From a bacterium (lineage in GTDB: Bacteria > Zhuqueibacterota > Zhuqueibacteria > Residuimicrobiales > Residuimicrobiaceae), in assembly GCA_035419245.1 (NCBI GenBank), contig DAOLSP010000018.1, forward strand, positions 130 through 64,129: a stretch of 64,000 bases of DNA, written 5' to 3'. Shown here one piece after another: positions 8,042 through 29,943 of this stretch. The notes under the pieces were generated by a model, which searched no databases, was not told the origin of the DNA, and was given only the letters and a program-made list of their open reading frames with translations. Within the stretch, counting starts at the first letter, position 1. Every line of letters starts with the position of its first letter. The position numbers and the translations under genes were made by a program.

Positions 8042-8097
8042 ATTTTCCAGAAACGAAAGTTGGATCAGACCAGATTCGGGAGGGAATTTCTTAAATC

Positions 8098-9637: not shown

Positions 9638-9723
9638 ATCATGAGTTTTAGTTTTAATGTCTAATTCATGCTGGAAATGATCCGGCGTAATCACTCTTTC
9701 AATCTTAGCGGAGGAAAGCCAAG

Positions 9724-9897: not shown

Positions 9898-10125
9898 AAA
9901 CGGCTGAGAAGGATCACTCAAGCACCTGGTTACTGATAAAGTAACAGGACTTCCAAAATCCTGAGAAGATATCATGGATTATTCAGGGTTCAGGAGCATG
10001 CGGAAGCAGTGTGCACATTTGTAAAGCAACCCCCGCTTCCAATGGAGAAAATAAAAGCGACGATGTCATCGTGATCCATAAACACCCCCAGCGTAATCTG
10101 ATCGTCTGAATGGAGGACGAATTGA

Positions 10126-10662
10126 ATGCGCCTGGGCAAGATTGCAAAGGGGATGCTGCGCCGGTTGCAGGACAGGGCGATCTATCGTTCTCTTTGGCGA
10201 AAGCTTGCCCCTCAACTCACGCTCCGAGAGGCATCAGACAGAGATTTGCTCCTCGTTCATCAATGGCTTAACGGCACCAGGGATTTCGAGCTGCAGCGCT
10301 CCCCGAACTTGACCGAATGGGTGGCTCTTTATCGTGGTCACATTGTTGGCTTTGTCCAACTGATTCGTTATCCGCAGGATAATGAACTTTATCAGGGGTA
10401 TTGGCTTTTCAGCATGAATGTCAAACCGCTCCGGCGCGGAATGGGAATTGGCAGTGCATTAACACGAACCGTAATAAATCGTGCTTGCGATGAAAGTGCG
10501 CCTTTTCTGGATTTGCTGGTTTTCGAGGATAATCTGCGCGCAATCAGGCTCTACGCCAAAATGGGATTTGAGCCCTGCATAATCCCGGCGCTAGAGCCCT
10601 CACTTGAAAAGGAACGGGAAGTATATGGCCGACGCCGGCTGGTGATGCGGAAAGTATTCTGA
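10126..10662 (+). CDS. GNAT-family N-acetyltransferase.
   Basis: QGYWLFSMNVKPLRRGMGIGSALTRTVINRA...RAIRLYAKMGFEP, i.e. GNAT motifs A and B. RBS GGAGGA upstream. Confidence 0.75.
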   Translation: MRLGKIAKGMLRRLQDRAIYRSLWRKLAPQLTLREASDRDLLLVHQWLNGTRDFELQRSPNLTEWVALYRGHIVGFVQLIRYPQDNELYQGYWLFSMNVKPLRRGMGIGSALTRTVINRACDESAPFLDLLVFEDNLRAIRLYAKMGFEPCIIPALEPSLEKEREVYGRRRLVMRKVF

Positions 10663-10875
10663 TTTTCAGAACCAGACAAACCACGTTAAAATATTACTTT
10701 GGAAAGAGCATTTTTGAATTTGAAGCAGGTGGAACTGGATTTTCGTTCGGCTAAGGTGACATTTCAGGGCACATGCTCCGAGGTGCGCGAAGTGTGTTAA
10801 GCGTGATGCTGCCGCAATGATTGGGTTGTCGGCATAACAGCGGAAGAATACGCGAACGGATTATTCCAGGCTCAA

Positions 10876-11493
10876 GTGATCTGTTCCTTGACCAACAAAG
10901 AATGTAAAAGGTCGGATGAAACCTGCCGTTACCGCATCTATCGTCTCAGCAAACGCACCGATAATAGCTGTGTCTATCTTGAGGACAATCGCTGCTCCAA
11001 TTATGAAATACGGCCGCAGGTATGCCGCGATTTCCACTGCCAGACAGGTTGGAAGCTCGCTTCGGTCTTTCCCGATTCCAGCGTATTGGGAGATGGAGGC
11101 TCGACGCTCACCCTGGACCGTTTTCTCGACCAGATCACGGATGACGCAGTATTTGTGCCGCATCCGCTTATCAAGGTACATGCTGTTTTTTACCTGCGGC
11201 CCAAACAGTCTATTATTTTTGTTAAAGAGATGGTTGGCGGTTGCGGCAAATTCAACAGCAGAGATGATCTATATTCTCCGCTGCTCGATGATGACAAGTT
11301 GATGCTGTTGATCGGCCTTTTTACATACAAGGAAACTTTGGGGCAGCTTTTCACGAGATTTACAGACCAGGCGGCTGTTGCCTTGAGTCGCAGAGAGTTT
11401 CTCACACTGGTTTGGCTGCTCAATAAACATAATATCGTCATTGATTCGCGCAATTTCAGGGGCATGCTGGCCGGCATGGGCGGAATTGAGTAA
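10876..11493 (+). CDS. YkgJ/UPF0153-type cysteine-cluster (putative Fe-S or zinc) protein.
   Basis: CxxC...C pattern NKECKRSDETC ... SCVYLEDNRCSNYEIRPQVCRDFHC, typical of YkgJ-family CxxCxxCC domains. Apparent GTG start, so start uncertain. Confidence 0.5.
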   Translation: MICSLTNKECKRSDETCRYRIYRLSKRTDNSCVYLEDNRCSNYEIRPQVCRDFHCQTGWKLASVFPDSSVLGDGGSTLTLDRFLDQITDDAVFVPHPLIKVHAVFYLRPKQSIIFVKEMVGGCGKFNSRDDLYSPLLDDDKLMLLIGLFTYKETLGQLFTRFTDQAAVALSRREFLTLVWLLNKHNIVIDSRNFRGMLAGMGGIE

Positions 11494-11566
11494 CGAAGGC
11501 TGTCATATCACGTTCATCAGTGATCCTTCACGGCAAACCCTGCCCAACCCGGAATTCGCTGAACTG

Positions 11567-11992
11567 ATGGCGGCGGTTCTGGCCAAGGGCACTCTTTTCA
11601 GGTTTCAGGCCAGCGGCAGCAGTATGGCCCCCTTCATCAGAGGGGGGGATGTACTTACCTTTGCGCCAATCACCAAACCTCCTGGTCTGGGGGAAATAGC
11701 AGCTTTTCGTCAGCCTGTAACCGGGCGGCTGATGGTGCACCGGATCATCCGCCGGCGTCAAGGTCTTTTTCTTATCAAAGGTGATAACAGCTGCCATCAT
11801 GATGGTTGGGTGCCCTCAGAGAATATTCTTGGCCGCGTTAGCCGCATTGAACATCGGGAGCGAACGGTTCGGTTGGGCCTGGGCTGGGAGCGCATTCCGA
11901 TCGCAGCACTCTCACGGCTCGGCCTACTGTGGCCCCTCTCACAGGCAATGCGCCGGCTGTTGCGGCCGGTTTATAAAAGGTTTTTTGCATGA
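11567..11992 (+). CDS. Small soluble S24/S26-family serine peptidase (LexA/signal-peptidase fold). Candidate leader peptidase.
   Basis: FRFQASGSSMAPFIRGGDVLTF matches the S26/S24 nucleophile box (GxSMxP...GD). No TM segment. The ORF track starts it at a TTG at 11441, the internal Met at 11567 is more plausible, and the gene ends in ATGA overlap with the downstream rSAM gene. Confidence 0.6.
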   Translation: MAAVLAKGTLFRFQASGSSMAPFIRGGDVLTFAPITKPPGLGEIAAFRQPVTGRLMVHRIIRRRQGLFLIKGDNSCHHDGWVPSENILGRVSRIEHRERTVRLGLGWERIPIAALSRLGLLWPLSQAMRRLLRPVYKRFFA

Positions 11993-13113
11993 CCCATACG
12001 TCATCGATAGAGATTCAGGATTTCGCTCTTTGGCAAAAACTCGAGGCCAAACGCGCCCTCTTCAGCTTTGACCTGGACCTGACCGCCCGCTGCAACCTCA
12101 ACTGCCGCCACTGCTATATCAACCTGCCGGCGGGAGATGAAGCGGCCCGGGCGAAGGAACTCTCCCTGGAGGAGATCGGCCGCATCGCCGATCAGGCGAT
12201 CGAACTCGGCGCGCTTTGGTGCCTGCTCACCGGCGGCGAGCCGCTGCTGCGGCCTGATTTCCCCGACATCTACCTCATGCTCAAGCGCAAGGGGCTGCTG
12301 ATCTCGCTCTTTACCAATGCGACCCTGGTGCGGCCGGAGCACATCGCGCTGTTCACAAAGTACCCGCCACGCGATATCGAGGTGACCATCTATGGGGCCT
12401 CAGCCGCAACCTATGAGCGCGTCACCCGCCGGCCAGGCGCCTTTGCACAGTTCATCACCGGCCTCGACGCCCTTTTCGCGGCCGGCATCAGGGTGCGCCT
12501 TAAGGCGATGGCCCTGCGCTCCAATCTTGAGGATATGGAGGCGATCGCCGCCTTCGGCCGCAGCCGCACCAAGGATTACTATCGCTTCGATCCCCAGCTG
12601 CACCTGCGCTATGACCGCGATCCGGTGCGCAACGAGGAGATCAGGGCGGAGCGGCTCACCCCCGCAGATGTGACGGACATGGAGAGGGCCGACGCTGAGC
12701 GCTTCGGTTCGTTGCTGAAGGGCTGCGATGAGCTGATAAACGAAGCTTTCACCCATGCCGGCTGCGACCATCTTTTTCACTGCGGCGCCGGCAACGGCAG
12801 CTGCAGCATCGGCTATGACGGAACCTTCCGCCTCTGCCAGTCGCTCTGGGCGCCGGGCACCACGGCCAACTTGCGCGAGGTGCCGCTGCGTCAGGCCTGG
12901 GAGGAACTGGTGCCGCGCGTGCGCGACCTGCGTTCCCGGGATCCGCAGTTCCTGCAAAGCTGCCGTGCATGTGCGATCGTGAATCTCTGTCTGTGGTGCC
13001 CGGCCCACGCCCATCTCGAGACCGGGCGGATGGACGGAGAAACCCCCTTCTTTTGCGCCGTCGCTCATGCCAGAGCGCAAGCGCTACAAAGCGCAATATT
13101 TGACGAAAAGTGA
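11989..13113 (+). CDS. Radical SAM / SPASM-domain enzyme (copy 3, paralog of 8098..9453 and 23288..24496).
   Basis: LTARCNLNCRHCYINLP (CxxxCxxC), GGEPLL, SPASM Cys cluster FHCGAGNGSCSIGYDGTFRLC...CRACAIVNLCLWCPAHAH...FFCAVAHARA. Colinear similarity to the other two rSAMs (FDLDLTARCN vs LDLELTERCN, ERLTPAD vs FRLTPEE). Confidence 0.9.
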   Translation: MTHTSSIEIQDFALWQKLEAKRALFSFDLDLTARCNLNCRHCYINLPAGDEAARAKELSLEEIGRIADQAIELGALWCLLTGGEPLLRPDFPDIYLMLKRKGLLISLFTNATLVRPEHIALFTKYPPRDIEVTIYGASAATYERVTRRPGAFAQFITGLDALFAAGIRVRLKAMALRSNLEDMEAIAAFGRSRTKDYYRFDPQLHLRYDRDPVRNEEIRAERLTPADVTDMERADAERFGSLLKGCDELINEAFTHAGCDHLFHCGAGNGSCSIGYDGTFRLCQSLWAPGTTANLREVPLRQAWEELVPRVRDLRSRDPQFLQSCRACAIVNLCLWCPAHAHLETGRMDGETPFFCAVAHARAQALQSAIFDEK

Positions 13114-17144: not shown

Positions 17145-18983
17145 ATGACTCCACGATTGCGCTCCCTTCGCAAGCTCACGCCCCGTCAGCTGCGCGAGGA
17201 ATTACTCCCCAACATCCTGAGATCGATCCGGCTGGTCTGGCAGGCCTCGCCCTCCCTCTTTATGATCAGCACCCTGCTGCTGGTGCTACAGAGCGTACTG
17301 CCGCTGGGCATACTCTACACCAGTAAGCTGATCCTCGACGGAGTCGCCGCGGCCCTGAAACCGGGCACAGCCGCATCGACGCCGCCCTCGCTGCTTTTTC
17401 TTGCCACGCTGGTGGCGGGACTGGTCTTTCTCCAGGTGATGGCCAGCAGCTTGCACGACTGGCTGCAGCAACACCAGTCCGCCCTGGTGCAGGAGAGCAT
17501 CATGGAGCGGCTGCATGCAAAATCGGTGGAGATCGATTTCGCCTACTACGAAAATCCCGAGTTTTTCGATACCCTGCATCAGGCGCAGCATCAGGCGATC
17601 TACCGGCCGTCGCAGCTGGTTGGCCGCCTCCAGAACATCATCCAGCAGAGTCTGACCCTGGCCGGACTGGTCGGCCTGCTCTTCCTCTTTCATTGGTCGA
17701 TTCCGCTGCTGTTGCTGCTGACCCTCCTGCCCGCCCTGCTGTTCCGCCTCCATTTTGCAGATGTGCTCTTCGAGTGGCGCCGCAAGAGCAGCAATCTGGA
17801 ACGCAAAAGCTACCATTATCACTGGCTGCTCACCGACAAGACGTGGGCCAAGGAGGTGCGTGTTCTCGCGGTGGGGCGTCTGTTCCGCCGCCGTTACCGC
17901 GCCATCCAGCGGCGGCTGCGCGTTGAGCAGTTCCGTATCAACGGCCGGCAGACCCGCGGCACGCTGATCGCCCAGCTGCTGGCGACAGCCGTGGCATACG
18001 GATTTTACATTGTGCTGATCGGCCGAACCCTGGCGGGGGCCATCACCCTCGGCAGCCTGGTGATGTACTTTCAAGCCTTCCAGCAGGCTTTGAATGCCTT
18101 GCGGACGCTTTTCACCGGGATCGGGGATATTTACGAGGACACCCGGTTTGTCTCCCAGCTCTTTGCCTTTTTCGCTCTGACTCCGGGTGTGGCGCGGAGT
18201 GTGCCGGTGCGTCCGATGCCGGCGGTCATCCGGCACGGGTTGACGATCGATGGCGTCTCCTTTCGCTACCCGGCCAGCGGGCGCTGGGCGCTGCAGTCGG
18301 TCTCGTTCACGGCCGCCCCGGGCGAACGCATCGCCCTGGCCGGGGCCAACGGCTCAGGGAAGAGCACCTTGATGAAGCTCATCTGCCGGCTCTACGACCC
18401 CACCGAGGGGCGGATTCTGATCGACGGTATCGACATCCGCGAGTTCGAGCAGGTTGAGTGGTGGCGCCGCCTGGCGGTGATGTTTCAGGATTTTGAGGAA
18501 TACAACCTCAGCGCTCGTGAGAATATCTGGCTGGGGGACATCCGTTTGCCGCTACGGGACGGGCGGATCGAGACGGCAGCCGACCTCTCGGGCGCCAGCA
18601 GAGTGATCGCCGGGCTGCCGCAGGGCTATGAGACCATGTTGGGTAAATGGTTCGATGAGGGGGAGGAGCTGAGCAAGGGGGAGTGGCAGCGGATTGCGGT
18701 GGCGCGGGCCTTTCTGCGCGACGCTCCGATCATGATCTTTGACGAGCCCACCAGCGCCCTCGACGCCCGCAACGAGTACGAGATGCTCAGTGCCTGGATG
18801 GAGCGGGTGCGCGGCCGGGTGGCGATTCTGATCAGCCACCGCATCTCAACCCTGCAGAGTGCGGACCGGATCATCATGATGCACCAGGGGCGTATTGCGG
18901 AGGTCGGGAACCACGCGCAGCTCTGGTCCGCCGGCGGTCCCTATGCGGAGTTGTTCAACCAGCCGGTGCCGGGGCGGCCCTGA
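17145..18983 (+). CDS. ABC exporter, fused transmembrane and ATP-binding domains (MsbA/multidrug/lipid-exporter type).
   Basis: Six predicted TM helices, then Walker A GANGSGKSTL, signature LSKGEWQRIAVARA, Walker B IMIFDEPTSALD. Confidence 0.85.
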   Translation: MTPRLRSLRKLTPRQLREELLPNILRSIRLVWQASPSLFMISTLLLVLQSVLPLGILYTSKLILDGVAAALKPGTAASTPPSLLFLATLVAGLVFLQVMASSLHDWLQQHQSALVQESIMERLHAKSVEIDFAYYENPEFFDTLHQAQHQAIYRPSQLVGRLQNIIQQSLTLAGLVGLLFLFHWSIPLLLLLTLLPALLFRLHFADVLFEWRRKSSNLERKSYHYHWLLTDKTWAKEVRVLAVGRLFRRRYRAIQRRLRVEQFRINGRQTRGTLIAQLLATAVAYGFYIVLIGRTLAGAITLGSLVMYFQAFQQALNALRTLFTGIGDIYEDTRFVSQLFAFFALTPGVARSVPVRPMPAVIRHGLTIDGVSFRYPASGRWALQSVSFTAAPGERIALAGANGSGKSTLMKLICRLYDPTEGRILIDGIDIREFEQVEWWRRLAVMFQDFEEYNLSARENIWLGDIRLPLRDGRIETAADLSGASRVIAGLPQGYETMLGKWFDEGEELSKGEWQRIAVARAFLRDAPIMIFDEPTSALDARNEYEMLSAWMERVRGRVAILISHRISTLQSADRIIMMHQGRIAEVGNHAQLWSAGGPYAELFNQPVPGRP

Positions 18984-19099
18984 CGCCATCCCCTCTTGCT
19001 CCCACCGGCCATTGCCGCGGCAGGCCGCGCCGCGCGTTAACCTGCTTCTGTCCATTCGCTTCCGGTATTTAACCGAAGAGCCATCAGGAGGAAATCCGC

Positions 19100-20738
19100 A
19101 TGGCAACATTCCGAAAAATATTGAATGATCGGGAAAAAGAGGGTGAAACCGGTTATTTTTCCGTTTTGCAGAACATGTCGGAAGAGGCCCATAAATCCTG
19201 GCTGGGTCAGACCGGGCAGGTTTGGGGATCCTATAATGGCGTTCCTCATCTCACCAATGTCGAACGCAATCTCGACCATCTCGCCGATGATGGACTCAAA
19301 TCCTCTTTCAGCAGCACAGAAATTTTTGTCCTCCTGGCGGCGGCACTGCTGCATGATATCGGCAAGCTCACGGTCAAGGATCCGGAAAAGGAAGCGCACT
19401 ACATCCAGTCCTGCACCAAGATATTAAAAGACTGGTATTATCTCAGGATTCCCGATCTCGAATGCGCGCACTGGATCGCCGTTCTTACCTGTGCGCATGG
19501 CTGGCCCTCCCCGGTCCCTCCTCCGGATTGCCCGGCCCTGGCCGGGGATCTTTGTGCTTTATGCTGCAGCGGCGGCGGCGTCCCCGGGTTCAGCGAGCTG
19601 GATTCCGACCCGGTGGCCCTGGACGGTCCGGTGCGTCTACGCTGGCTCGCTGCGCTGCTGCGCATGGCCGATGAAGTTGACAATCAGGTCGAACGCGCTG
19701 TGCCGGATTGGCTGCGGGACAGCCTGCCCGGGGAGGACCCTGAGCTCTCCTGGCGCAGGCACATTCACGCGGTGCTTTTTGACCATGCCGGGCAGTGCAT
19801 CAAATTGTGCACGCTCTCCCTTGATCCGAAGCGGTGGAATAACAAGCAGCTGTCGTTTCTCGGCCAGGCGGTCGGCAAAATCGATCTGGTGCTGCCTCTT
19901 TTATTCCCTCGAGCAGGAGCCGGAGTGGATCATCGAGCATCTCAAGAGTCATCATTACTTCAATGAAAATAACGCGCTTACCATTGCGCAAAATGTGCTC
20001 GACCTGGAAGACTCCGCACACGCCTATTTCGCTTTGAAATCCATCGCCAACAAGCTGCTCCTGCCCAAACTGACCCCAAGAGCGGAAGGCTATCGCAATC
20101 TGCCGCCGGAATCGCTCTTTCAGCGCCGTTATTCTGAACTGGAAAAATCGATCAACTGGCTGACGAATAAGGGGATCGTGCCCTTCTTTTTTATCGACAG
20201 CCTCTCCGCCTTCGCCCCGACGCCTCTGACCCGCAACCAGATCCACCGGCTGTTCACGCTCTTCCGCTCCGCTAACATTCCTTTGCTGGTCACGCTCGAA
20301 CGATTGCGGCATTGGGCGATCAAGGAGGAAGAGATCCCGTTCAATGTGGCGCGCTATCTGGCGGATATCGTCATCAAGCTCGATGAAGCGCACCGCAATG
20401 ATTATTATTACCAGACCATCGAAGTGACCAAGACGCGCTACAACCGCAGGATTCTCGGCCAGCATCTCCTCAAGCTCAAATCGGCGGAACAGAGCGCGAC
20501 CAAGTCGTTTGATCCCAGGCTGGGGATCGTGATCTACCCCTCGATTCACAACCATCTGGTACACAGCAGAAGCACTCCTAACGAGAAGCGCCTGCTCAGG
20601 TTGGATATCCGGGATCGCCTGTTGCCTCTGGGGATCGGGCCCACGGATGCTGACAAGGGTAGGGGGGAGGACGCAGCGGCTCAGGAGCGTGAAACCAGTC
20701 CGGCGCCGCCGGAAGGGGTGCCGGGGCCGGCCGCTTAG
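19100..20738 (+). pseudogene. HD-motif N-terminal domain plus degenerate KaiC/RecA-like C-terminal domain protein, interrupted by a frameshift at the T-run 19899-19902 (ORFs 19100..19966 and 19491..20738).
   Basis: N-terminus LLAAALLHDIGK (HD motif). After the shift, ...GIVPFFFIDSLSAF... resembles the KaiC/RecA fold but no Walker A is seen. Deleting one T from CCTCTTTTATTCC gives a continuous ...KIDLVLPLYSLEQEPEWIIEHLK. Confidence 0.45.
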
Positions 20739-21103
20739 CCAACAAGCACTCTGCGGTAATACCGCGGCCCTGCCATTCAGCCAGCAAGCAGGAAGCTATA
20801 CCGCCGGGGCCGGCACTTTAATCCTGAAATCACTCATTCCCCTTGGCTGCCCGGCACCCATGGACCCGTAATTGCTGGTCCATCCCTATTCATTCCGTCC
20901 TGTCGCGGCAGCTGGTGCGTGCCCGTCCAGCCTGACGGCTTGGACGCGGTGGCCTCTTTCGCGCCCATCCATCTGACCCCTTCTGGCATCTTCTTCCATC
21001 CCCCCATAATCCGCTCACTTTGGGCGGCCTGCAGTGTCCTTGCCTTTCCCCGATCGCCCCGGTTTACCTCTCTCTGTAATTCTGATATCCCATTCCCGAT
21101 TCT

Positions 21104-21943
21104 TTATACCCGCTTTTGTACTACCGCGCCAGCAACCTCATAGGTATCGTTTGCTTGAATTTCAATGAGTTCAAGTTCAGCCTGGGCGACTTCTTTCCGC
21201 AATTCTTCCATGTTGGTGAAAGAATGGGAAAATTCCCGGTTAAATTTAAGCATGTCGCCTTTTTCATACTGCACATTGCCAGCGCAAAGCCATGCCAGCA
21301 TCTTTTTGATTCTGTCTGTACTTGCGGAACCGGTTGCCTGGGGATGCCATGAAAACTCAAAAACAAAATAGCCCCCGGCCCTCAGTGCACTGCCCACTCG
21401 CTGTAGCAGCTCGATTCGCTTTTTTCGTGTTGGTATGGAGGAATACATCGCTGAGGAGAGCCAGGCTAAATCGAATCTGCTTGCCGGCACATTCAGATCG
21501 GTGATATCCTGGACCATACCGGAAATCTGCACACCACGCCTTCGGGCATAGGCTATTGCCGATTCGACCATTTGGGGAACATAATCAATGCCTGTGATCT
21601 CAAAACCTCTTTTCGCCAAAGAGATTGCTTCCCGTCCTCCTCCCAAGCCGAGCAGGAGCACGTGCCCTTTTCTCAATCCGGTACTAGTCAGCAGCGATTC
21701 TTCCAGATCTCTCAAACCGGAGTCGTTTCTCTGCTCATCACACCAATAGTTAATTTCATCCGGATTTGAGTAAAACCGCCTGCTGAATTCAACGAGGTCA
21801 TCCGGACGCATAACGATCACTGCGCATGATTGGATAAATTTTCCAAACTTGATAAGAAAATTTGCGGCCTTGATTCTCAGTTTCATAGAGTCCGTCCATC
21901 TGTTGATCTGCAGCAGAATGGAATTGATGCAAGCAAGAGGCAA
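21104..21943 (-). CDS. Class I SAM-dependent methyltransferase.
   Basis: Motif I VLLLGLGGGREAISLAKRG, post-I GIDYVPQMV, and GGYFVFEF. Confidence 0.75.
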   Translation of the reverse strand: MPLACINSILLQINRWTDSMKLRIKAANFLIKFGKFIQSCAVIVMRPDDLVEFSRRFYSNPDEINYWCDEQRNDSGLRDLEESLLTSTGLRKGHVLLLGLGGGREAISLAKRGFEITGIDYVPQMVESAIAYARRRGVQISGMVQDITDLNVPASRFDLAWLSSAMYSSIPTRKKRIELLQRVGSALRAGGYFVFEFSWHPQATGSASTDRIKKMLAWLCAGNVQYEKGDMLKFNREFSHSFTNMEELRKEVAQAELELIEIQANDTYEVAGAVVQKRV

Positions 21944-21956
21944 TCTCGTGCAGATT

Positions 21957-22850
21957 TCAGGAGTGAAATCGTTTCAACTGGGCCATGAGCAGGGGTTCAA
22001 TCTGTTCAGCCATACTGCGCGGGCAATAGCCGCTATCACAGGAACGGCTTATGGTCACGATGACCGGCTTGATTTTCTTGGCGATTAGAATGGTTATCAA
22101 CCTTTGCAGTTCACACTCAATATCGGCCATTGCTGGCAGATGGGAAATATCACGTGTTTTTTTGTGCGCGATTCGTGCGAAATAGCGCTCTTCTCGCTCA
22201 AAGAATTCAAAATTCAGTCCACTGAAGGGAAGTGTCTTTTCTGCTAGAAAAAGGGCTTTGTTGTCGAATTGAAATCGGGTGACCTCCAACTCATAGCTAA
22301 AATGATTCGTGATGGAGTCCCGGCAGCAAAAATAGTCCAGGTCAATATCCAGTATGACCTGTCGGTTCCGGGGCAAGTGCCGGGCTTCGCCAGACCTATA
22401 ATAATAGGGGGTCAGATCAGGGATAGCTTTATGGAGGAGGGGATGCGCAGCGCGGCTTATCTTTACTCCATGTTTGATTACCGTACCTTCGCCGAAAGCC
22501 GAACCGATTGTGGTAAATTTACGAGCGGGTTTAAACTTGCGCCATCCCGGATAAACGAAATAGACATTTCTGATAACGCCGCTAAGGATAGCAGGGAGAA
22601 TAAAAGTGGATATCGTCAGTTGACTGAAGGTAAACCGGCGATAGAATTCCAGTATTGCAGAATCACTCTGTTCTTTTGGATAAATGGACTCGGAAAACTG
22701 GAGAGGCGGGGCCATGTCATCGTGAGCATCGATGTGAACCAGATCCGTTGCACCGGCAAGATACCCTTCAAGTCTGGCTTTATGCCAGAAATAAAAGGCT
22801 TCATGATGCTCGTTGAAGCAAAAAATTGGGAGATCCTTTTTCCCGGACAT
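21957..22850 (-). CDS. Arginase/deacetylase-fold protein (UPF0489-like), putative metal-dependent hydrolase.
   Basis: Motifs HIDAHDD and ILDIDLDYF resemble the arginase-family DAHxD and SxDxDxxDP metal-binding motifs. 13-nt gap to the downstream methyltransferase gene. Confidence 0.45.
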   Translation of the reverse strand: MSGKKDLPIFCFNEHHEAFYFWHKARLEGYLAGATDLVHIDAHDDMAPPLQFSESIYPKEQSDSAILEFYRRFTFSQLTISTFILPAILSGVIRNVYFVYPGWRKFKPARKFTTIGSAFGEGTVIKHGVKISRAAHPLLHKAIPDLTPYYYRSGEARHLPRNRQVILDIDLDYFCCRDSITNHFSYELEVTRFQFDNKALFLAEKTLPFSGLNFEFFEREERYFARIAHKKTRDISHLPAMADIECELQRLITILIAKKIKPVIVTISRSCDSGYCPRSMAEQIEPLLMAQLKRFHS

Positions 22851-22880
22851 CCACTACCTTTAATAAAGCAGTCAAGGGTA

Positions 22881-22920
22881 ATCAAATATCCTCTCACCGG
22901 CGCATGCACCGGTGAGAGGA
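22881..22920 (-). terminator. Candidate intrinsic terminator (minus orientation) downstream of precursor-2: 11-bp GC-rich stem CCTCTCACCGG/CCGGTGAGAGG with loop CGCATGCA, followed by AUAUUUGAUU on the minus-strand RNA.
   Basis: Perfect inverted repeat at 22891-22920. A U-rich tract follows in the minus-strand sense. It lies between precursor-2 and the UPF0489-like gene. Confidence 0.45.
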
Positions 22921-23062
22921 TGCAGTCCCATCTCATCAGCCGTCGGGAATTCGGCAGCCGGATGCAATGAACAGCCCCTGGTCTACATCGTACAATACCG
23001 GCTAACGCCCCGGCGTTTACTGCGCCGGAAGATGCTCCGGTTTTTCCAGCTTTGCTTCGGAC

Positions 23063-23245
23063 TTAAGATGCGGCGTAGGTGTCACATTGAACTGTGTTAT
23101 TTCTGTTTACACAGATCGCGCCGGCCGCCTGGTCCGGCATGTTCCTTGGATTGGGATTTTTACAGTAAATTTTTTGCAGCAGGTTTTCATCCGGGCGGGC
23201 GTGGTACAGGATGACCAGTTCGGGTTTCTGCCATTGTTTTTTCAT
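23063..23245 (-). CDS. Precursor peptide copy 2 (60 aa): MKKQWQKPELVILYHARPDENLLQKIYCKNPNPRNMPDQAAGAICVNRNNTVQCDTYAAS.
   Basis: RBS AAGGAGAAA. The ORF track lists 23063..23251 from an upstream ATG; the second ATG has the better spacing. Shared with precursor-1: leader QW(K/Q)KPEL, CKN at the start of the core, three Cys, xQC near the C-terminus. It lies immediately downstream of rSAM copy 2. Confidence 0.75.
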   Translation of the reverse strand: MKKQWQKPELVILYHARPDENLLQKIYCKNPNPRNMPDQAAGAICVNRNNTVQCDTYAAS

Positions 23246-23287
23246 GATCATTTTCTCCTTTATTTAGGGACTTTGGATTTTCCACTT

Positions 23288-24496
23288 TCAGACTTGTGCG
23301 GATGCAGGCTGTCTGGTAGTCAGCGATGGCCGCTGCAGGTCTTTTACCCGGTGTTGCCAGTCAGCAACCATCCAGGATTTTTCACCTTCGGCCAAAAGGC
23401 CGATGAGTCTGGCCTGGGCATGTGTTAGACGGCAAAAATGTTCCAGCCACCCATCCAGTTTCCGCTCTTCCATCCAGGAAACCGCCGGGCATTGCTCGCA
23501 TAGATCGACGAGAAAACAATGCGCGCAGCGTTCATGATACAGCTTATCCTGAGCCTCAAGCTGCCTCACCTTTGGGAAAAATTGGCGAAAAGCATCATGC
23601 AATGATCCCTTTCCCAGATCATATACAGTGTCAGGGTGGCGCAACAGCAAACACATCTGTAATTTTCCATAGGCATCCGCGCAGCCTTTGTTGATCCCGG
23701 CATTACATCGGAATAAAGCAGTGCCATGGACCTGGCAGAACCGGGAACAGAAAGCCTTGAGGCCATCGATCTGAGCTCTCTGATCTCTCGACTCCAGCTC
23801 CAGTTGAAGTGATGGAGCGATGCGGAAGGTTTTAATCTCTTCATTGCGTTGTACATCCCTTCCCCTGCATCTCAGATGAAGGGTGGTCACCTGTGGCTTG
23901 AGAATATTCAAGTCTTTACGACTCTCGGCCCAGGCCTCAAATGCGAGGAATGTACCTTTGCTCAACGGGAGCAGAACAGGATTGATCACAAAGGGTATCT
24001 TGTAGGTGGTCAGCAGATCAATCCCTTTAAGCACGGCTTTGTATGAATCCGGCGTGCGGGATATGGACTCGTAAGTTTTTTGATCTTTCCCGTACAGCGA
24101 AATTTGCAGAGGATGACCGGCCGGGAATCGGGAAAGAATCCGGGCCAGTTGTGGTGTAATTCTGGTTCCGTTGGTGAAAATTTCCACCCTCAGTCCGAGC
24201 TTTTTTGCATACACATAGATCTGCTCAAAATCTTCTCTGAGCAGAGGCTCCCCTCCGGTGAACCGGATGTTCTGGCATCCCAGGCAGAGAGCTTCCTCCA
24301 GAATCGTTTGAATTTTGTCGAAAGCCAGTTCCTGGTTGATGGATGGATCATCCGCTGGTCGATTGATATAGCAGTGAACACAGTCGTTGTTGCAGCGTTC
24401 CGTGAGTTCCATATCCAGCCGTGTGATGAGGCGGCCTTTGGTACCCGAGATGGATGGAGGGAGGGGCATTCTTCGTATGTAGGAGCTGCCTGTCAT
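23288..24496 (-). CDS. Radical SAM / SPASM-domain peptide-modifying enzyme (copy 2; closest paralog of 8098..9453).
   Basis: LTERCNNDCVHCYINRP (CxxxCxxC), RFTGGEPLLREDF, SPASM cysteines (FRCNAGINKGCADAYGKLQMC ... CAHCFLVDLCEQCPAVSW ... HFCRLTHAQARLIGLLAEGEKSW). Start codon ATGA-overlaps the upstream HprK-like stop. Confidence 0.9.
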   Translation of the reverse strand: MTGSSYIRRMPLPPSISGTKGRLITRLDMELTERCNNDCVHCYINRPADDPSINQELAFDKIQTILEEALCLGCQNIRFTGGEPLLREDFEQIYVYAKKLGLRVEIFTNGTRITPQLARILSRFPAGHPLQISLYGKDQKTYESISRTPDSYKAVLKGIDLLTTYKIPFVINPVLLPLSKGTFLAFEAWAESRKDLNILKPQVTTLHLRCRGRDVQRNEEIKTFRIAPSLQLELESRDQRAQIDGLKAFCSRFCQVHGTALFRCNAGINKGCADAYGKLQMCLLLRHPDTVYDLGKGSLHDAFRQFFPKVRQLEAQDKLYHERCAHCFLVDLCEQCPAVSWMEERKLDGWLEHFCRLTHAQARLIGLLAEGEKSWMVADWQHRVKDLQRPSLTTRQPASAQV

Positions 24497-25389
24497 ACCT
24501 TAAATTCCCTCAGGAGATCCACTACCGCCCCGCTTTTGTCAAATTCAAGGCTTCGGCATGGCACTTCTTTTATCAAGTCGTTGATAACTGCAAGGGTCTG
24601 ATGCCACCAATCGGAAGTGCCAAGTGGTCTGATGGCTTTGATCGTGCACGCACTCAACCTGCTGATCAACTGGGTTTTGTCATGAATCGGCAACAGGCGG
24701 TTTGTTGCGGCCTTGTCCAGCAAGAGAATGGCTTTTAAGGGAGCGGAATCAGGCGAAACGATGGATACTTCTCCATGATGCCAGGTGCCGTGAATACGGA
24801 AACCGGCCGAATCTTTTCGCACGATAATTCTGTCATCACAAAGGATTTTCGCCTGGCCGGCGAGCATCTTCACCATCGTGGATTTTCCGGCCGTGGAATG
24901 GCCTGGAAAGAGAAGACCTTCGCCTTCCAGATCGACGCCAGAAGCATGAAACATGCAGCCATGGCAGGTTGCCAGCACTCGAGTGATAAAAAGTTGATCC
25001 GTTTGAGAAAATGATAATACGGCAACATGGCCGTCTCTGAAGATATCATCCCGTTCATTAAAGATAACCAGATGAGTAAACGATGGATGTACGAATGCAA
25101 CCTGCTGCAAGGGGTTCGATTGATTGTCAAGCAGCGTGCAGAAGAAAATCCATTTATCAGGATGCCGGTAGATGGTCAGGTTCTCGCGCTCGAATACCTT
25201 CCGGCCCAAATCTTGTCCTTCAATAATCGGCAGGCCAAAGTGATGTTCAATCCGGACCATGACTTCTTTCGGCTCTGCAATTTCGAAAGAAGAGATATTC
25301 GGGCTGAATGTTTCATCTGAAAGCGGATAGTCTGAATCAACCTGAATTGTCATTCCAGCAGTACAATAATACCGGCTAGTTGATTTCAT
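24493..25389 (-). CDS. HPr-kinase-related P-loop protein (HprK-like kinase, copy 2).
   Basis: FPGHSTAGKSTMVKMLAGQAKILCDDRIIVRK aligns with copy 1. The ORF track starts at a TTG at 25560; similarity to copy 1 begins near the Met at 25389 (MKSTSRYYCTAGMTIQVDSD vs MVEHCRWYSIGDITLQVESD). Confidence 0.7.
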   Translation of the reverse strand: MKSTSRYYCTAGMTIQVDSDYPLSDETFSPNISSFEIAEPKEVMVRIEHHFGLPIIEGQDLGRKVFERENLTIYRHPDKWIFFCTLLDNQSNPLQQVAFVHPSFTHLVIFNERDDIFRDGHVAVLSFSQTDQLFITRVLATCHGCMFHASGVDLEGEGLLFPGHSTAGKSTMVKMLAGQAKILCDDRIIVRKDSAGFRIHGTWHHGEVSIVSPDSAPLKAILLLDKAATNRLLPIHDKTQLISRLSACTIKAIRPLGTSDWWHQTLAVINDLIKEVPCRSLEFDKSGAVVDLLREFKV

Positions 25390-26190
25390 ACATCCGCACC
25401 TTGTGCCAACTGATTTCTGTGGATTCCAGTTTCGCCCATTGTGGGAAAGCTTGCCTGGATCCGAGAATAGTAATCCGTAAGGTTCAGCCGAGTGACATCG
25501 ATCCTTGAATTGAATCAGTTCGCTGGCCTGCTGTTCCACAGCGTCTAAAGTGAATTCCAAGATCGTTGCACGAAAGTAGACAACTTGCTTAATAAAATGG
25601 AAAGGAATGAAAGTCTCTGCCCAGGGAACAGCTACCTGTGAACTCTTGGCGCTGGCACAGTTCTACCAGGAAAATGAGTTAACAAAAATAAAACCGTTTA
25701 TTAGCTCTGGGATTGGACGGCCAATTACTTCATTCCGTCCTTTCATGGATAATAGATACTTGGTTGCAGGACTTGGTGCGGGGTATTCTCCGGCGATGCA
25801 AGGCTTTATTATGTAGTATAAGGCATAAATTAACACCAAGCAAGTACTTTTTCTGAATCTTCAATTATTCTCTCGATAATGCATTGCCATTGTTTGTGCC
25901 AAGGATGATCTCTTGTATTCCTGTGCAGCAAGCAGACTTCGTCTCTGGTAAAGGGGTGATCCATCATCGTGCGGTGGGGACGCTCCAATTCTGCATAACG
26001 TATGGTGCCGTCTGGAAAATAAACGATTGCAAAACCATTGCGCTTTCGCCAGATCTAATCACCATACAGGCTTTTTGATCGTTCAATTTCCCAGATTCCT
26101 GTACCGGCTGCTATGGTCTGTACAGACTTGCGGGCTGATGATTCCTCGCTCCCGACTGCCTTCTTCGGCTTTCACTCCCGGTCCACCCGC

Positions 26191-29100
26191 CTATTTTGGT
26201 AATCGAATCACAAACTCGGTAAACTCGCCCTGCACGGATTCGAACCAGATCTGGCCATTATGCCCCTGCACGACAATGTCATGGCTGATTGACAAACCCA
26301 GCCCCGTGCCCAGCCCCGCCGGCTTGGTGGTGAAAAAAGGCGTGAATATCTTGTCGCGGACTTCTGGCGGTATGCCATTGCCATTGTCGCGGATGCGGAT
26401 TTCGACCGTACTGCCGAGATTCACGGTGCGCACCCGCAATGTAGGTGTAAATTCACCGCCCGCTGTCCGCTTCTTTTTATGTGCTTCATAGCAGCCATTG
26501 TGCAGAATGTTGAGAAAAACCCGGCTGATATCCTGCGGCACTATTTTCAGCTCACCGACAGTCGGATCCAACTCTGTCTCGAATTTGATATTAAAGGTGC
26601 TATCCTGTGCGCGCATGCCGTGATAGGCGAGGTTGATGTCCTCCTCCAGCATGGCATTGATAAGGGTAGGCTGGCGCTCGCCCGCCTTGCCGCGTGAATG
26701 CTGGAGCATGCTGCGCACGATGTTGTCCGCGCGCTTGCCATGTTCCTTGACCCTTTCGGCGTTTTGTTGCAGCGTCGCGAGCAGCTCGTCAATCTCGGCG
26801 TCCGTTTCCTGATTCGGGGACTTTTTGGCCTTGGTCAGCAGCTGGCGCAGTTCATCGACCATCTCCACAGCGAGCTCGGAGAAATTGTTGACAAAGTTGA
26901 GCGGATTTTTAATCTCATGCGCGATCCCGGCGGTCAGGGCTCCCAGGGCCGCCAGCTTGGATTGGGTCACCAGCTTTTCCTGTGTGGTCTTCAAGTCATC
27001 CAGAGTTGCAATGAGCCGGCGGTAGGATTCAGCGTTCTCCAGAGCAATGGCGCTGTAGGTGGCCAGGTTGCGCAGGATATTGAGATCATATTCGCTGTAG
27101 GCGTTTTTGCTGAAGCTCTGCGCGGTAATGACGCCGATCACTTTTTCCTTGTGCATCAGCGGCAGATAGAGAATCGATTCGGGCATCTTGCCGCCCATGG
27201 GGGACTTGAGGATTTGAATATATTTTTTATAATCCCGGTCACTGTCGTTGATGATAACGTCATGCTGGTTCTTGAAGCACCATACGGCCAGCCGGTTCTC
27301 GTCGGCCAGGTCATAATTAAACGGCGGCAGGGTCTCGCCGTTTTCGATGGTGGCGGGAAATTCGAGACTGTTTTTCTCTTCGTGGTAGAGGCCGATGCCG
27401 AAGATCGGGGCATCGATGAGTTTGTTGACATTCTCATAGACGGTCTGGATGATGGATGCAATGGAAAGGTTATCGATGATGTCCTGGCCGATGCTGCTGA
27501 GCTGTTCGACGTTCCTGATTTGCTCCTGGATTTTGGCCGTACGCTTCATGACGGTTTTCTCCAGGGATTTTCTGAGCCGGTGCAGCCGCCGGGTGCGCAG
27601 GAGCACAATACCGGTGATCGTGCCGCCGGCGAACAGCAGATATCCGATCCAGATCCACCAGCTCCGGTACCAGGGGGCTGAAATCGAAAAGGCGAAGGAG
27701 GTTTCGGTGCTCTCTTCTCCGTAAATATTTCTGGCCCTGACACGGAAAACATACGGACCGTGGGGGAGATTCGTATAATTGCGCTTGCTATCCTTGCTCC
27801 ATGCCGACCAGCGCGGGTCAAATCCCTCCAGCATGGTCTGATATTCATTCGCCATGGGCTTGATATAGGAGGTCGCGGTATACTCGAAAGTCATGGCGTT
27901 GAATTGGTAGGGGAGGGTATAGTGTTCTGAAGCATTCTGCAGCGGCCCGAAGCCGCCATTGTAGAGGATCGAGTCGTTGGCGATTTTTACGCGGCGGATG
28001 AGTGCCGGAAAGGGACGATGTGAGGTCGTGCCCCGGGCTGCGGTGAAACGGATCGCGCCGTGGGTCGTGCCAAACCACACTGTTGCGCCGCTTTCAGGAT
28101 AGATGGCGTAGAGGAGCTCATCGGCAAATCGTGATGTGCTGTTTTTTTCAAGCTGATAGCTGCCGTCAGCCTTTTTGCGATAAAACGCTGTCTCTTTGCC
28201 GGCATTCGCCCATATATTGCTGTCGGCGTCTTCGGTGATCACGCATTCACCCGGGTTGATGCCGAGTCCCACTGCCTTGAAAAAGGGATCCGGATAGAAT
28301 TTCTGTTCCTGTTCATCAAACTGGTAGATTCCTTTACCTGTACCGAAGACCAGACGGCCTGCCACCTGAAAAACCGAGGTAATGCCGATCGGCAGGCCCT
28401 GATCCGGGCCGAACCTTTCAATAACGGGATGGTCGATGCCGCTGCCGGCAAAGTGCAGGCGGATGAGCCCGGAATTATAGGTACTGAGCCAGAAGGTTCC
28501 GGGGACAGGTTCAACAATCTGGCGGATATATTCATGCACCACCTGAATAATGCTTTCCAGCCTCAAACGGCCCGGGGCATGGGCATCGTACTTCAGGGTG
28601 GCGAGGCCATTGATTGCACCGGCGATGATACGGCTGCTGTCGAGACGGGATTTATGCAGGCAGATGAACGCGGGAGTCGTGGCGCTATACGGCAAGGCGA
28701 GCGTCCCTTTTGTGCCCTGGATCAGGTAGATGCCGGTCACATTGCCGGCATAGAGGTGGCGGTCAACAGCCAGGGAATTGGATGCCCCCGAATTCCTCAT
28801 GCCCTCGACATATTTGAACTGCGAATCATGCCTGTCCAGATAATAAATCCCATCCGTGGCTGAGGCATAGAGGGTGCCCTGGTATCTGCGCAAATCGAAA
28901 GGCACGCCCCCGGAGGCAAAGGGAAAATGGGTCAGCCCGGATTCGTATTCGAGAATGCCGACGCCGCCGGCCATGCCCAGCCAGATGTTTTTCTGGCGAT
29001 CGACAAATACAGCCGCAACGGTATTGGACAGCAGCCCGGTTTCCCTGGTAAGGTGCAACTTGATCTTCCCCGTGCTGTCGATAATCAGGAATCCTGCGGA

Positions 29101-29943
29101 GAGAGTGCCCAGGGCAAGCGAGCCATTTGGCAGCACCCTGGCGTCGTAGAGCGTACCTTGCTGTAATAGTTCGTCCGCTTCCGTGTGCAGGGGTTGAAAG
29201 GAATGGCCGTCATAGAGATATAGTCCGCGGTTCAGGGTTCCCAGCCATGCCGTGCCGGGACGGCCAGGGAAGGGTAGCATGACATGGGAACGGTCGTTGA
29301 CGAACTGCTGGCTGCCGGGAATCAGAATCAGGGAATCGCCAACCAGCTTTTTCATGCCGTGTCCGCGCTGCAGGACGTACAGAGTCTGATCCAGATAGAA
29401 CGAATGGATAAAATAATTTTTGGGATTCTCTGGACGCCAGATTTTGACAAGCCGGCTGGTTTCATTGGTGCCAGCCGGGGCGACGTGCTCGAAGAGGAAC
29501 AGCCGCTCCCTCGCCTGGAAATAGATCCCTTCGGGCGCTGCATGAATGGACCAGATATAATTGAATCCCCGGTCTTCGGGTGGGATTTGCTCGAGCAGGG
29601 AAATATAGCGGGTGGCGCCGCTGGTGTCTGCATCGAGATAGCCGAGTTCGGTGGCGGAACCGACATAAATGCGGCCGCTGGAGTCTTTGGCAAATGAGCG
29701 TACGAAGGAACCGTTGGGGATTTTGATCATGCGCCAGGTTGAGCCGTCAAACTCCTGGATGCCGTAGCCATTACCGACATAGATGATGCCGCGATTGTCC
29801 TGGGCGAAGGCATAATTCTGGGTATGGCCTCCGGTTTGGACGGCGGAGTAGAGGCTCATAAAGGGCGTGCCGGTTTCGGCAGGCAGGGCCGGTGTGCAGA
29901 GGAGGGCCAGAAGAAAGACCAGGATTTTCCGGACATTGTCCAT
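26191..29943 (-). CDS. Sensor histidine kinase with periplasmic two-component-regulator propeller/Y_Y_Y domains, a TM helix, a GAF-like region, and HisKA plus HATPase domains. No receiver domain is fused.
   Basis: Signal peptide MDNVRKILVFLLALLCTPALPA, ~700 aa of beta-propeller-like repeats, TM WWIWIGYLLFAGGTITGIVLL, H-box AHEIKNPLNFV, G-boxes GLGTGLGLSISHDIV. Confidence 0.8.
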   Translation of the reverse strand: MDNVRKILVFLLALLCTPALPAETGTPFMSLYSAVQTGGHTQNYAFAQDNRGIIYVGNGYGIQEFDGSTWRMIKIPNGSFVRSFAKDSSGRIYVGSATELGYLDADTSGATRYISLLEQIPPEDRGFNYIWSIHAAPEGIYFQARERLFLFEHVAPAGTNETSRLVKIWRPENPKNYFIHSFYLDQTLYVLQRGHGMKKLVGDSLILIPGSQQFVNDRSHVMLPFPGRPGTAWLGTLNRGLYLYDGHSFQPLHTEADELLQQGTLYDARVLPNGSLALGTLSAGFLIIDSTGKIKLHLTRETGLLSNTVAAVFVDRQKNIWLGMAGGVGILEYESGLTHFPFASGGVPFDLRRYQGTLYASATDGIYYLDRHDSQFKYVEGMRNSGASNSLAVDRHLYAGNVTGIYLIQGTKGTLALPYSATTPAFICLHKSRLDSSRIIAGAINGLATLKYDAHAPGRLRLESIIQVVHEYIRQIVEPVPGTFWLSTYNSGLIRLHFAGSGIDHPVIERFGPDQGLPIGITSVFQVAGRLVFGTGKGIYQFDEQEQKFYPDPFFKAVGLGINPGECVITEDADSNIWANAGKETAFYRKKADGSYQLEKNSTSRFADELLYAIYPESGATVWFGTTHGAIRFTAARGTTSHRPFPALIRRVKIANDSILYNGGFGPLQNASEHYTLPYQFNAMTFEYTATSYIKPMANEYQTMLEGFDPRWSAWSKDSKRNYTNLPHGPYVFRVRARNIYGEESTETSFAFSISAPWYRSWWIWIGYLLFAGGTITGIVLLRTRRLHRLRKSLEKTVMKRTAKIQEQIRNVEQLSSIGQDIIDNLSIASIIQTVYENVNKLIDAPIFGIGLYHEEKNSLEFPATIENGETLPPFNYDLADENRLAVWCFKNQHDVIINDSDRDYKKYIQILKSPMGGKMPESILYLPLMHKEKVIGVITAQSFSKNAYSEYDLNILRNLATYSAIALENAESYRRLIATLDDLKTTQEKLVTQSKLAALGALTAGIAHEIKNPLNFVNNFSELAVEMVDELRQLLTKAKKSPNQETDAEIDELLATLQQNAERVKEHGKRADNIVRSMLQHSRGKAGERQPTLINAMLEEDINLAYHGMRAQDSTFNIKFETELDPTVGELKIVPQDISRVFLNILHNGCYEAHKKKRTAGGEFTPTLRVRTVNLGSTVEIRIRDNGNGIPPEVRDKIFTPFFTTKPAGLGTGLGLSISHDIVVQGHNGQIWFESVQGEFTEFVIRLPK

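Follow-up and report, generated by a model that had tools for sequence, protein, structure and literature searches.

The 64,000-nucleotide stretch of bacterial DNA analysed here (GenBank assembly GCA_035419245.1, contig DAOLSP010000018.1, family Residuimicrobiaceae; the whole stretch is called the window below) carries two gene clusters of one kind, each comprising an HprK-like P-loop protein (ScmC), one or more radical SAM/SPASM (rSAM) enzymes, and a short precursor peptide. Copy 1 is encoded on the plus strand, and copy 2, about 10 kb away, on the minus strand. The question raised by copy 2 is how its precursor could be recognized and matured by a cluster that has no gene of its own for a PqqD-type leader-binding protein. 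An earlier note, made from the letters of the DNA, had offered two answers, namely that the PqqD of copy 1 acts in trans, or that the rSAM enzyme of copy 2 binds the leader directly. The comparison described here points to the former: copy 2 would be an intact but reduced 'satellite' cluster for a ribosomally made, post-translationally modified peptide (RiPP), using the PqqD, the peptidase, and the rSAM-3 enzyme of copy 1 in trans, a reading to which we give a probability of roughly 0.6. The earlier description holds for the most part, yet copy 2 is more aptly seen as such a reduced satellite, equipped with an arginase and a methyltransferase, and probably dependent on copy 1.

Gene content of copy 2

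Copy 2 begins with the gene of ScmC-2 (24493..25389, minus strand; 298 residues, ATG start), a P-loop protein of the HprK/PEPCK fold and a putative precursor-peptide kinase, with the P-loop FPGHSTAGKSTMVKML. It overlaps by 4 nt (ATGA) the gene of rSAM-2 (23288..24496, minus strand; 402 residues), a radical SAM/SPASM peptide maturase of the rSAM-1 orthologue class. Next comes the gene of the precursor, peptide-2 (23063..23245, minus strand; 60 residues), in which the leader MKKQWQKPELVILYHARPDENLLQKIY is followed by the core CKNPNPRNMPDQAAGAICVNRNNTVQCDTYAAS. The HprK-like gene with this P-loop, the ATGA-coupled rSAM gene, and the exact sequence of the 60-residue peptide had all been reported in the earlier note and were found as described. 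The ribosome-binding site of peptide-2, AAGGAG, lies 9 nt before its ATG, an alternative in-frame ATG at 23251 being just 3 nt from the GGAG, and the peptide is also gene-called with 60 residues in a sister strain, L084. For ScmC-2, a longer open reading frame (ORF) of 355 residues with a TTG start (24493..25560) was rejected in favor of the 298-residue form, since the longer ORF can be aligned with copy 1 only from its residue 63 onward and the homologues have 298 residues.

Two further genes of the minus strand, which were absent from the earlier note, follow the precursor. One encodes a peptide arginase-like enzyme (21957..22850; 297 residues), and the other a SAM-dependent methyltransferase (21104..21886; 260 residues counted from M20 of a 279-residue ORF), called with the same 260 residues in L084 and in a second sister strain, L081. 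Also absent from that note was the loss from copy 2 of an S24/S26 peptidase and of a second rSAM enzyme.

The counterparts of ScmC-2 and rSAM-2 in copy 1 are ScmC-1, a kinase-like protein (7115..8041, plus strand), and rSAM-1, a radical SAM/SPASM enzyme (8098..9453, plus strand). In BLASTP comparisons, rSAM-2 is 41% identical to rSAM-1 over 391 residues (E 2e-104) and 34% identical to rSAM-3 (E 5e-61), so that rSAM-1 is indeed its closest paralogue, as had been proposed. ScmC-2 and ScmC-1 share 40% of 297 residues (E 3e-76), and the two precursors are identical at 13 of 27 positions, found only in the leader and in Cys-Lys-Asn (E 4e-8). All three pairs that the earlier note had suggested aligning are thus significantly similar. 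Copy 2 has an orthologous cluster in candidate division KSB1, with 60–63% identity, and copy 1 resembles clusters of other lineages at 62–82%. As judged from these alignments, the paralogy of the two copies is old and their ancestry distinct, and they are not the outcome of a recent duplication.

Reduction of copy 2 and leader recognition

A tblastn search over the window revealed no second gene for a PqqD protein, an S24/S26 peptidase, or an rSAM-3-class enzyme. Each of them is present once, in copy 1: the PqqD-family RRE chaperone at 9329..9637 (plus strand; Pfam PqqD, 1.2e-15), the S24/S26 signal-peptidase-like protease at 11441..11992 (plus strand; Pfam Peptidase_S24, 8e-6; NCBIfam archaeal-type signal peptidase I, 1e-8), and rSAM-3, representing a second radical SAM/SPASM class, at 11989..13113 (plus strand). 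The lack of a PqqD gene in copy 2, already remarked upon before, is thereby borne out. The closest relatives of copy 2 carry PqqD and peptidase genes, with or without rSAM-3, right after the orthologue of rSAM-2. In one of them, the KSB1 locus L001, the order is ScmC-rSAM-PqqD-S26-rSAM3-peptide-arginase, with identities to copy 2 of 63% for ScmC and of 60% each for the rSAM, the peptide, and the arginase; another, L082, starts with ScmC-rSAM-PqqD-S24, and its ScmC is 67% identical to that of copy 2. Since the window contains only one of each of these genes, in copy 1, copy 2 is by this comparison a reduced derivative of an L001/L082-like ancestor from which a PqqD-peptidase-rSAM3 block of ~2 kb was lost. 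The reduced layout is common to the two sister strains, L081 and L084.

The wider family sets this reduction in context. At least 348 loci were counted in a pattern scan that included one genome per species, and 80 of them were fetched and examined, their layout being surveyed by BLAST of all window proteins against the six-frame ORFs of these loci. The usual gene order is ScmC, rSAM-1 class, PqqD, S24/S26 peptidase, and rSAM-3 class, then from 1 to more than 11 small genes, with the rSAM-3 orthologue coming after the peptidase in most loci. Among accessory genes, a methyltransferase is found in 13 loci, a GNAT acetyltransferase in five, and an arginase in two. When gene content was counted only in the 34 loci with enough flanking DNA, PqqD was present in 33, the S24/S26 peptidase was kept in 30, and PqqD, peptidase, and rSAM occurred together in 30. 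The only other PqqD-less locus (L080:6888-16583) is also a satellite, in which an rSAM-ScmC fusion is accompanied by a peptide and a methyltransferase. Its neighbor on the opposite strand is a cluster resembling copy 1 of the window, with identities of 82% for rSAM-3, 75% for the GNAT protein, and 58% for the peptidase.

The alternative route, recognition of the leader by rSAM-2 itself, would call for a leader-binding (RRE) domain of ~100 residues at its N terminus, as in AlbA and StsB. The Radical_SAM domain of rSAM-2 (Pfam, 1e-20) covers residues 29–178, with the CX3CX2C motif at C35/C39/C42, so that only 34 residues precede this motif; the alignment of rSAM-2 with StsB starts at profile position 101, and that of rSAM-1 with AlbA at position 110. 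As the motif is located at C35 and the alignments begin after the RRE region, rSAM-2, by its sequence, is devoid of such a domain, and the search for it that the earlier note had suggested came out negative. Of the two proposed routes, a probable action in trans of the PqqD of copy 1 has the better support, given the lack of an RRE in rSAM-2, the presence of PqqD in 33 of the 34 loci, and its presence in the closest relatives of copy 2.

Precursor peptides

Precursors of the family were collected by motif extraction, which yielded 85 peptides from 57 loci. Their leader follows the pattern K-K-x-W-x-(K/R)-P-x-L-x-V-L-x-R-x-x-P-E-E-x-V-L-x-x and is succeeded by an invariant Cys-Lys. The core that comes after it comprises 26–43 residues, is rich in Ser, Cys, Gly, Thr, and Asn, and is variable save for the Cys positions and a terminal Ser or Thr. 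This arrangement agrees with the leader-guided system with diversifying cores that had been proposed from the two peptides of the window. The cores are not wholly free to vary, since a Gly-Pro (or x-Pro) located 8–9 residues after the Cys of Cys-Lys is semi-conserved in many of them (NGP in peptide-1, NMP in peptide-2). Four Cys are present in 53 of the precursors and three in 20. The last residue is Ser in 72 and Thr in nine (81/85 in all, compared with a background of 17% among small ORFs), and the last Cys is placed exactly six residues before the C terminus in 59. In a metagenome-assembled genome of Dehalococcoidia (L012:8983-16618), at least 11 precursor genes surround one enzyme set, with near-identical leaders and hypervariable cores.

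A profile hidden Markov model built from 80 precursors of other genomes only was run on the 1356 stop-to-stop segments of the window. It picked out peptide-1 (9724..9897, plus strand; 57 residues) with an E-value of 1e-17 and peptide-2 with 5e-14, the next best segment reaching 0.56. Because a model made of foreign precursors selects these two alone, the window holds, by this measure, exactly two precursors, and their common leader is a family signature; the likeness of the two peptides, as the earlier note had maintained, is thus positional and not one of composition. The features that it had listed as shared by them are real, but the Cys-Lys, the terminal Ser, and the spacing of the last Cys are family-wide and not exclusive to this pair. 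Both peptides of the window have three Cys, and they end in C-T-N-V-A-G-S and C-D-T-Y-A-A-S. In peptide-2 the Cys residues are C28, C45, and C54, the last of them six residues before the C-terminal Ser60, and its core includes two Arg (R34 and R48), while that of peptide-1 has none. No Pfam or NCBIfam model matches either peptide, and the sole result of a homology search with peptide-2 in a collection of 5.8 billion proteins, where queries of this length are too short to become significant, was a strain variant with 97% identity.

ScmC-2 as a putative peptide kinase

Relatives of ScmC-2 are numerous. In an exhaustive HMMER scan with ScmC-2 as the query, covering 1.84 billion representatives, 3989 clusters (at 50% identity) had E-values of at most 1e-3, of which 1171 were at or below 1e-10 and 125 at or below 1e-30. 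Of 98 homologues obtained in a homology search, 97 have a precomputed match to the Pfam family PF27840 'ScmC'; the membership of ScmC-2 follows from such a match on a homologue with 97% identity (P0001) and not from ScmC-2 directly. Hosts of the cluster include KSB1, Aminicenantes, Omnitrophota, Desulfobacterota, Chloroflexota, Acidobacteriota, and Planctomycetota, as well as the methanogens Methanocella, Methanotrichaceae, and Methanoregula.

An AlphaFold2 model of ScmC-2 (pLDDT 91.5) has a two-domain, PEPCK-like architecture of the HPrK/P-PEPCK fold. The possibility that the N-terminal half is a winged-helix, leader-binding domain was considered and rejected, as the model contains a β-rich PEPCK-like N-terminal domain with no winged helix. 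Among 42 family members, His148, Gly163, Gly168, Lys169, Ser170, and Asp185 are invariant and position 186 is Asp or Glu, while position 166, which is Thr in ScmC-2, is Gly in 17 members. In BsfK, a kinase of lasso peptide precursors, the corresponding motif is H148-G163-G166-G168-K169-S170-D186-D187 (PMC10368454). HPr-kinase homologues from lasso clusters act on linear precursors, whose C-terminal Ser they phosphorylate with little other specificity (PMC8498205); the reaction is sped up by the PqqD-type protein BsfB1, and the lasso leaders carry a YxxPxL motif (PMC10368454). By analogy, in view of the fold and motif of lasso kinases and of the near-invariant terminal Ser/Thr of the precursors, ScmC-2 would phosphorylate the C-terminal Ser60 of peptide-2. 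In 49 of 78 loci, ScmC constitutes the C-terminal half of a protein of ~650 residues, with a third rSAM/SPASM enzyme making up the N-terminal half (for example, L012:6927-8939, L068:6930-8912, and L078:2866-4836, besides 46 other loci). A remnant of such a fused rSAM domain was sought by tblastn in the gap upstream of the ScmC-2 gene, and the three known rSAM genes were the only matches.

Radical SAM and tailoring enzymes

Beyond its radical SAM domain, rSAM-2 has C-terminal Cys residues at positions 264, 272, 282, 324, 327, 333, 336, and 355, which include a C-x2-C-x5-C-x2-C arrangement. Its alignments with NCBIfam models span the SPASM region (for instance, residues 27–349 with the mycofactocin maturase), and the Pfam SPASM model itself was matched only by rSAM-3. 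The number of Cys in the precursors varies with the number of rSAM enzymes: 54 of the 60 peptides from loci with a fused ScmC have at least four Cys, and 13 of the 20 from loci with a standalone ScmC have three (Fisher p = 3.5e-6, a value uncorrected for phylogeny). These counts are consistent with one Cys-derived cross-link per rSAM enzyme. Peptide-2 has three Cys, as does the peptide of L001, for which two rSAM enzymes are available, and this points to the use of rSAM-3 in trans.

The arginase-like enzyme can be aligned over its full length (residues 4–294) with the structure of the peptide arginase OspR (8BRP; E 7.5e-27) and scores 53 bits against the Pfam model PF12640 (7e-14; cut-off 27). 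Its match to the NCBIfam model NF052474 (FlmR/OhkR; 3e-41, 141.7 bits) is below the cut-off of 350 bits, making it a relative of that narrow subfamily and not a member. Residues H15, D41-x-H43-x-D45, and D168-I-D170-L-D172 align with the metal ligands of OspR, which are His12, Asp39, His41, Asp43, Asp165, and Asp167 (PMC10028609). The enzyme is predicted from these similarities to convert Arg to ornithine in the core of peptide-2, where R34 and R48 are available. The methyltransferase is matched by the Pfam models Methyltransf_25 (6e-14) and Methyltransf_11 (1e-11) and, weakly, by a methyltransferase of daptide RiPPs (1.5e-10); it is also predicted to be a tailoring enzyme.

Taken together, these assignments outline a possible route to the product. 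The PqqD protein of copy 1 would bind the common W-x-K-P-E-L leader and present peptide-2 to the enzymes. ScmC-2 would transfer phosphate from ATP to the Ser60 side chain, in the manner of the HPr-kinase homologues from lasso clusters, and rSAM-2 and the rSAM-3 of copy 1 would each form one Cys-derived cross-link on the core with its C28, C45, and C54. The arginase might turn R34 and/or R48 into ornithine, the methyltransferase would methylate peptide-2, and the S24/S26 peptidase of copy 1, a candidate leader peptidase for both peptides, would cut off the leader.

Alternative explanations

Two other accounts of copy 2 have to be set against a satellite served in trans by copy 1. Copy 2 might be autonomous, with the leader bound directly by ScmC-2 and/or rSAM-2 and removed by a housekeeping protease, in which case the product would have fewer cross-links than that of peptide-1, plus ornithine and a methyl group. 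A kinase-like protein, an rSAM enzyme, a precursor, and two tailoring enzymes are indeed encoded in one co-oriented string with overlaps or close spacing, in a layout stable in three strains; moreover, lasso kinases recognize chiefly the C-terminal Ser (PMC8498205), and peptide arginases act without an RRE (PMC12703449, PMC10028609). We nevertheless regard autonomy as unlikely, for PqqD is kept in all but one of the 34 well-flanked loci and the full set in 30, neither an RRE in rSAM-2 nor a winged-helix domain in the ScmC-2 model is present, and peptide-2 retains the full leader and three Cys, as does the L001 peptide with its two rSAM enzymes. Alternatively, copy 2 might be a decaying remnant, which has ceased to yield a product since it lost the PqqD-peptidase-rSAM3 block and is gradually turning into a cluster of pseudogenes. 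It lacks three genes that are near-universal elsewhere in the family, and in the 98%-identical sister strain L081 (Logan ERR13624442; L081:12145-12327) the codon of the invariant Trp5 of peptide-2 is changed from TGG to the nonsense codon TAG. In addition, the region 23288..26190 is more diverged from L081 than its flanks, with identities of 97.8–97.9% for ScmC-2 and rSAM-2 and of 92.6% for the 800-nt upstream spacer, compared with 99.5–100% for the precursor, the arginase, the methyltransferase, the sensor kinase, and the spacer between peptide and arginase, a mosaic that suggests recombination or faster evolution. Decay is, however, hard to reconcile with five ORFs that are intact in both the window and L084, with catalytic residues, Fe-S Cys, and arginase metal ligands that are all kept, and with a precursor that is intact and has a good ribosome-binding site in two of three strains (the L084 variant differs by Q6R and A43S). 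The ratio of non-synonymous to synonymous substitution rates relative to L081 is also low (dN/dS ~0.2), at 0.19 for ScmC-2 (12 synonymous and eight non-synonymous changes) and 0.20 for rSAM-2 (15 and 10), and we consider a remnant quite improbable.

A separate alternative concerns ScmC, which, instead of being a kinase of the C-terminal Ser, may assist the rSAM enzymes in an NTP-dependent way, for instance by activating some other residue or by serving as a scaffold. Conservation of the terminal Ser/Thr would then have another cause, such as its acceptance of a cross-link from the Cys located six residues before it. The fusion of ScmC to an rSAM/SPASM enzyme in 49 of 78 loci speaks for such a role, and the fixed Cys-x5-Ser spacing in 59 of the 85 precursors suggests a structural link between the two residues. 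On the other hand, the catalytic motif of the lasso kinases is kept almost residue for residue (PMC10368454), and the only HprK homologues characterized in connection with RiPPs act as Ser kinases (PMC8498205, PMC10368454). A partner role for ScmC thus seems rather unlikely, and it would not be exclusive of kinase activity, as phosphorylation could come before a Cys-Ser linkage.

Several points weigh against the satellite reading with its trans-acting PqqD and C-terminal kinase. The PqqD of copy 1 is just 48% identical to that of L001, a cluster of the copy-2 type, and the leader of peptide-2 has an insertion of two residues before Cys-Lys relative to peptide-1. The nonsense codon in L081 may reflect either a satellite that can be dispensed with or a mistake in the assembly. 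The relation between the numbers of Cys and of rSAM enzymes has exceptions (5/60 and 7/20), and the frequent fusion of ScmC to an rSAM enzyme may indicate that it serves that enzyme and is not a free-standing tailoring kinase. Finally, we infer phosphorylation, cross-link type, methylation site, and cleavage site alike from the genes, and the use of PqqD, peptidase, and rSAM-3 in trans from their absence in copy 2 and the comparison with other loci.

Copy 1 and the surroundings of the clusters

Apart from the genes already described, copy 1 includes those of a GNAT acetyltransferase (10126..10662) and of a Cys-rich, CxxCxxCC-like protein of 205 residues (10876..11493), the former also present in four other loci and the latter with no match in any of the 80 loci. 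The final 125 nt of the rSAM-1 ORF (9329..9453) fall within the PqqD gene, read in a different frame, and the homology to rSAM-2 stops at residue 389 of its 451; the tail beyond that point may be either a frameshift artefact or a real overlap.

In copy 2, a perfect 15-bp hairpin followed by ATTTGATT (22888..22921, minus strand), detected in a scan for terminator-like elements, is positioned between the precursor and arginase genes and is 100% conserved in L081; by its sequence, it is a candidate partial terminator or attenuator. A scan for sigma-70 promoters performed no better than on shuffled sequences (seven sites compared with 6.3 expected), and an Rfam search of 20800..26400, including the gap upstream of ScmC-2, gave no match. 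This 800-nt gap (25390..26190) has no genes other than short unconserved ORFs and separates ScmC-2 from a Y_Y_Y/GAF sensor histidine kinase of 1250 residues (26191..29943), which adjoins copy 2 in all three strains and could regulate it. Three genes lie between the two copies (17145..20738) and also come after copy 2 in L081; they encode an ABC transporter of 612 residues that may be an exporter, a protein with an HD-CE domain (19100..19966), and a KaiC-like ATPase. The G+C content is 0.49 at 21104..25389 and 0.53 at 7115..11992, compared with 0.59 for the whole window, and the lower values of both clusters hint at horizontal acquisition.

Comparison with known systems

No publication on this ScmC/rSAM/PqqD cluster family was found in the literature on SynChlorMet, PF27840, HprK with SPASM, or SPASM with PqqD and a kinase, and the family is a widespread RiPP family without experimental characterization. 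It is large and spread over many phyla and methanogens, and with its precursors now defined, its enzymes become directly testable, the invariant Cys-Lys, the relation of Cys number to rSAM number, and the Cys-x5-Ser C terminus each giving rise to concrete hypotheses. The window itself amounts to a natural experiment, in which a full cluster and a reduced one with extra tailoring enzymes occur in one genome, and it suits the study of trans-acting leader recognition and of a new substrate class of peptide arginases. We can speculate, tentatively, that the family is a large undescribed RiPP class of uncultivated phyla and methanogens, in which a PEPCK/HprK-fold kinase would mark the C-terminal Ser/Thr of a peptide with the W-x-x-P-x-L leader and two or three rSAM enzymes would each cross-link one Cys (the number of Cys being that of the rSAM enzymes plus one). 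The remaining Cys would possibly close a C-terminal ring with the activated terminal residue, and satellites would diversify the products by pairing private precursors and tailoring enzymes with a chaperone, a protease, and an rSAM enzyme that they share with a main cluster.

Among catalogued systems, the SynChlorMet (SCM) cassette comes nearest, being similar in having an ScmC-type HprK-like protein, a PqqD homologue (ScmD), and two PqqE-like rSAM/SPASM enzymes (ScmE and ScmF), and in a host range that includes deltaproteobacteria and methanogens. The equivalog models of that cassette (TIGR04248-04251) are nonetheless missed by a wide margin. ScmC is the best NCBIfam match of both copies of the protein, with 37.6 bits (1.6e-9) for ScmC-2 and 27.9 bits for ScmC-1 against a cut-off of 125. 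The PqqD of copy 1 scores 20.9 bits against a cut-off of 100 for ScmD, and the rSAM enzymes score 61–85 against 400 for ScmE/F (71 with ScmF and 61 with ScmE in the case of rSAM-2). Identification of the family with the true SCM cassette was rejected, as the Methanocella and Geobacter members are also below the NCBIfam cut-offs. Since these cut-offs are missed so widely, even by those members, the family is, by profile comparison, a sister of the SCM cassette within Pfam ScmC. The present family differs further in its S24/S26 peptidase and in having precursors that can be recognized as a family; to our knowledge, no precursor was identified in the description of SynChlorMet.

Lasso peptide clusters with HPr-kinase homologues (PadeK, ThcoK, SyanK, and BsfK) have in common with the present system an HprK-like P-loop protein of ~300 residues with the pattern H...G..G.GKS...DD at nearly the same residue numbers, a likeness of the published motif and of the fold. 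They also share a PqqD-type RRE protein, a leader with an aromatic-x-x-P-x-L motif (YxxPxL there and W-x-x-P-x-L here), and Ser as the last residue of the precursor (PMC8498205, PMC10368454). They differ in that the partners here are rSAM/SPASM enzymes and an S24/S26 peptidase, and in that many ScmC proteins are fused to an rSAM enzyme. Among the genes annotated in the two copies and at the 80 loci, none matched a lasso cyclase (Asn-synthetase-like) or a transglutaminase-like B2 protease, although no search dedicated to these two enzymes was made.

The maturases of sactipeptides and ranthipeptides (AlbA, StsB, and PapB) provide the other half of the comparison, with an rSAM/SPASM enzyme, a Cys-rich core, and RRE-guided recognition. 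The NCBIfam models of StsB (6.6e-17), PapB (1.3e-12), and AlbA are matched weakly, all below their cut-offs. In the AlbA/StsB-type systems the RRE is an N-terminal domain, whereas here it is a separate PqqD protein; two to three distinct rSAM enzymes are present per cluster here. The arginase, in turn, resembles OspR (landornamide) and FlmR/OhkR in its full-length homology to OspR, its preserved metal motifs, and the presence of Arg in the adjacent core. The described substrates of peptide arginases are precursors of the NHLP, Nif11, SCIFF, 'SCCRRSCN', and 'DD(I/V)LF' types (PMC12703449), whereas a W-x-x-P-x-L/Cys-Lys precursor would be a further type. By analogy with these systems, the clusters of the window thus appear as hybrid-like combinations of the rSAM/SPASM thioether RiPPs with the kinase-tailored lasso pathways.

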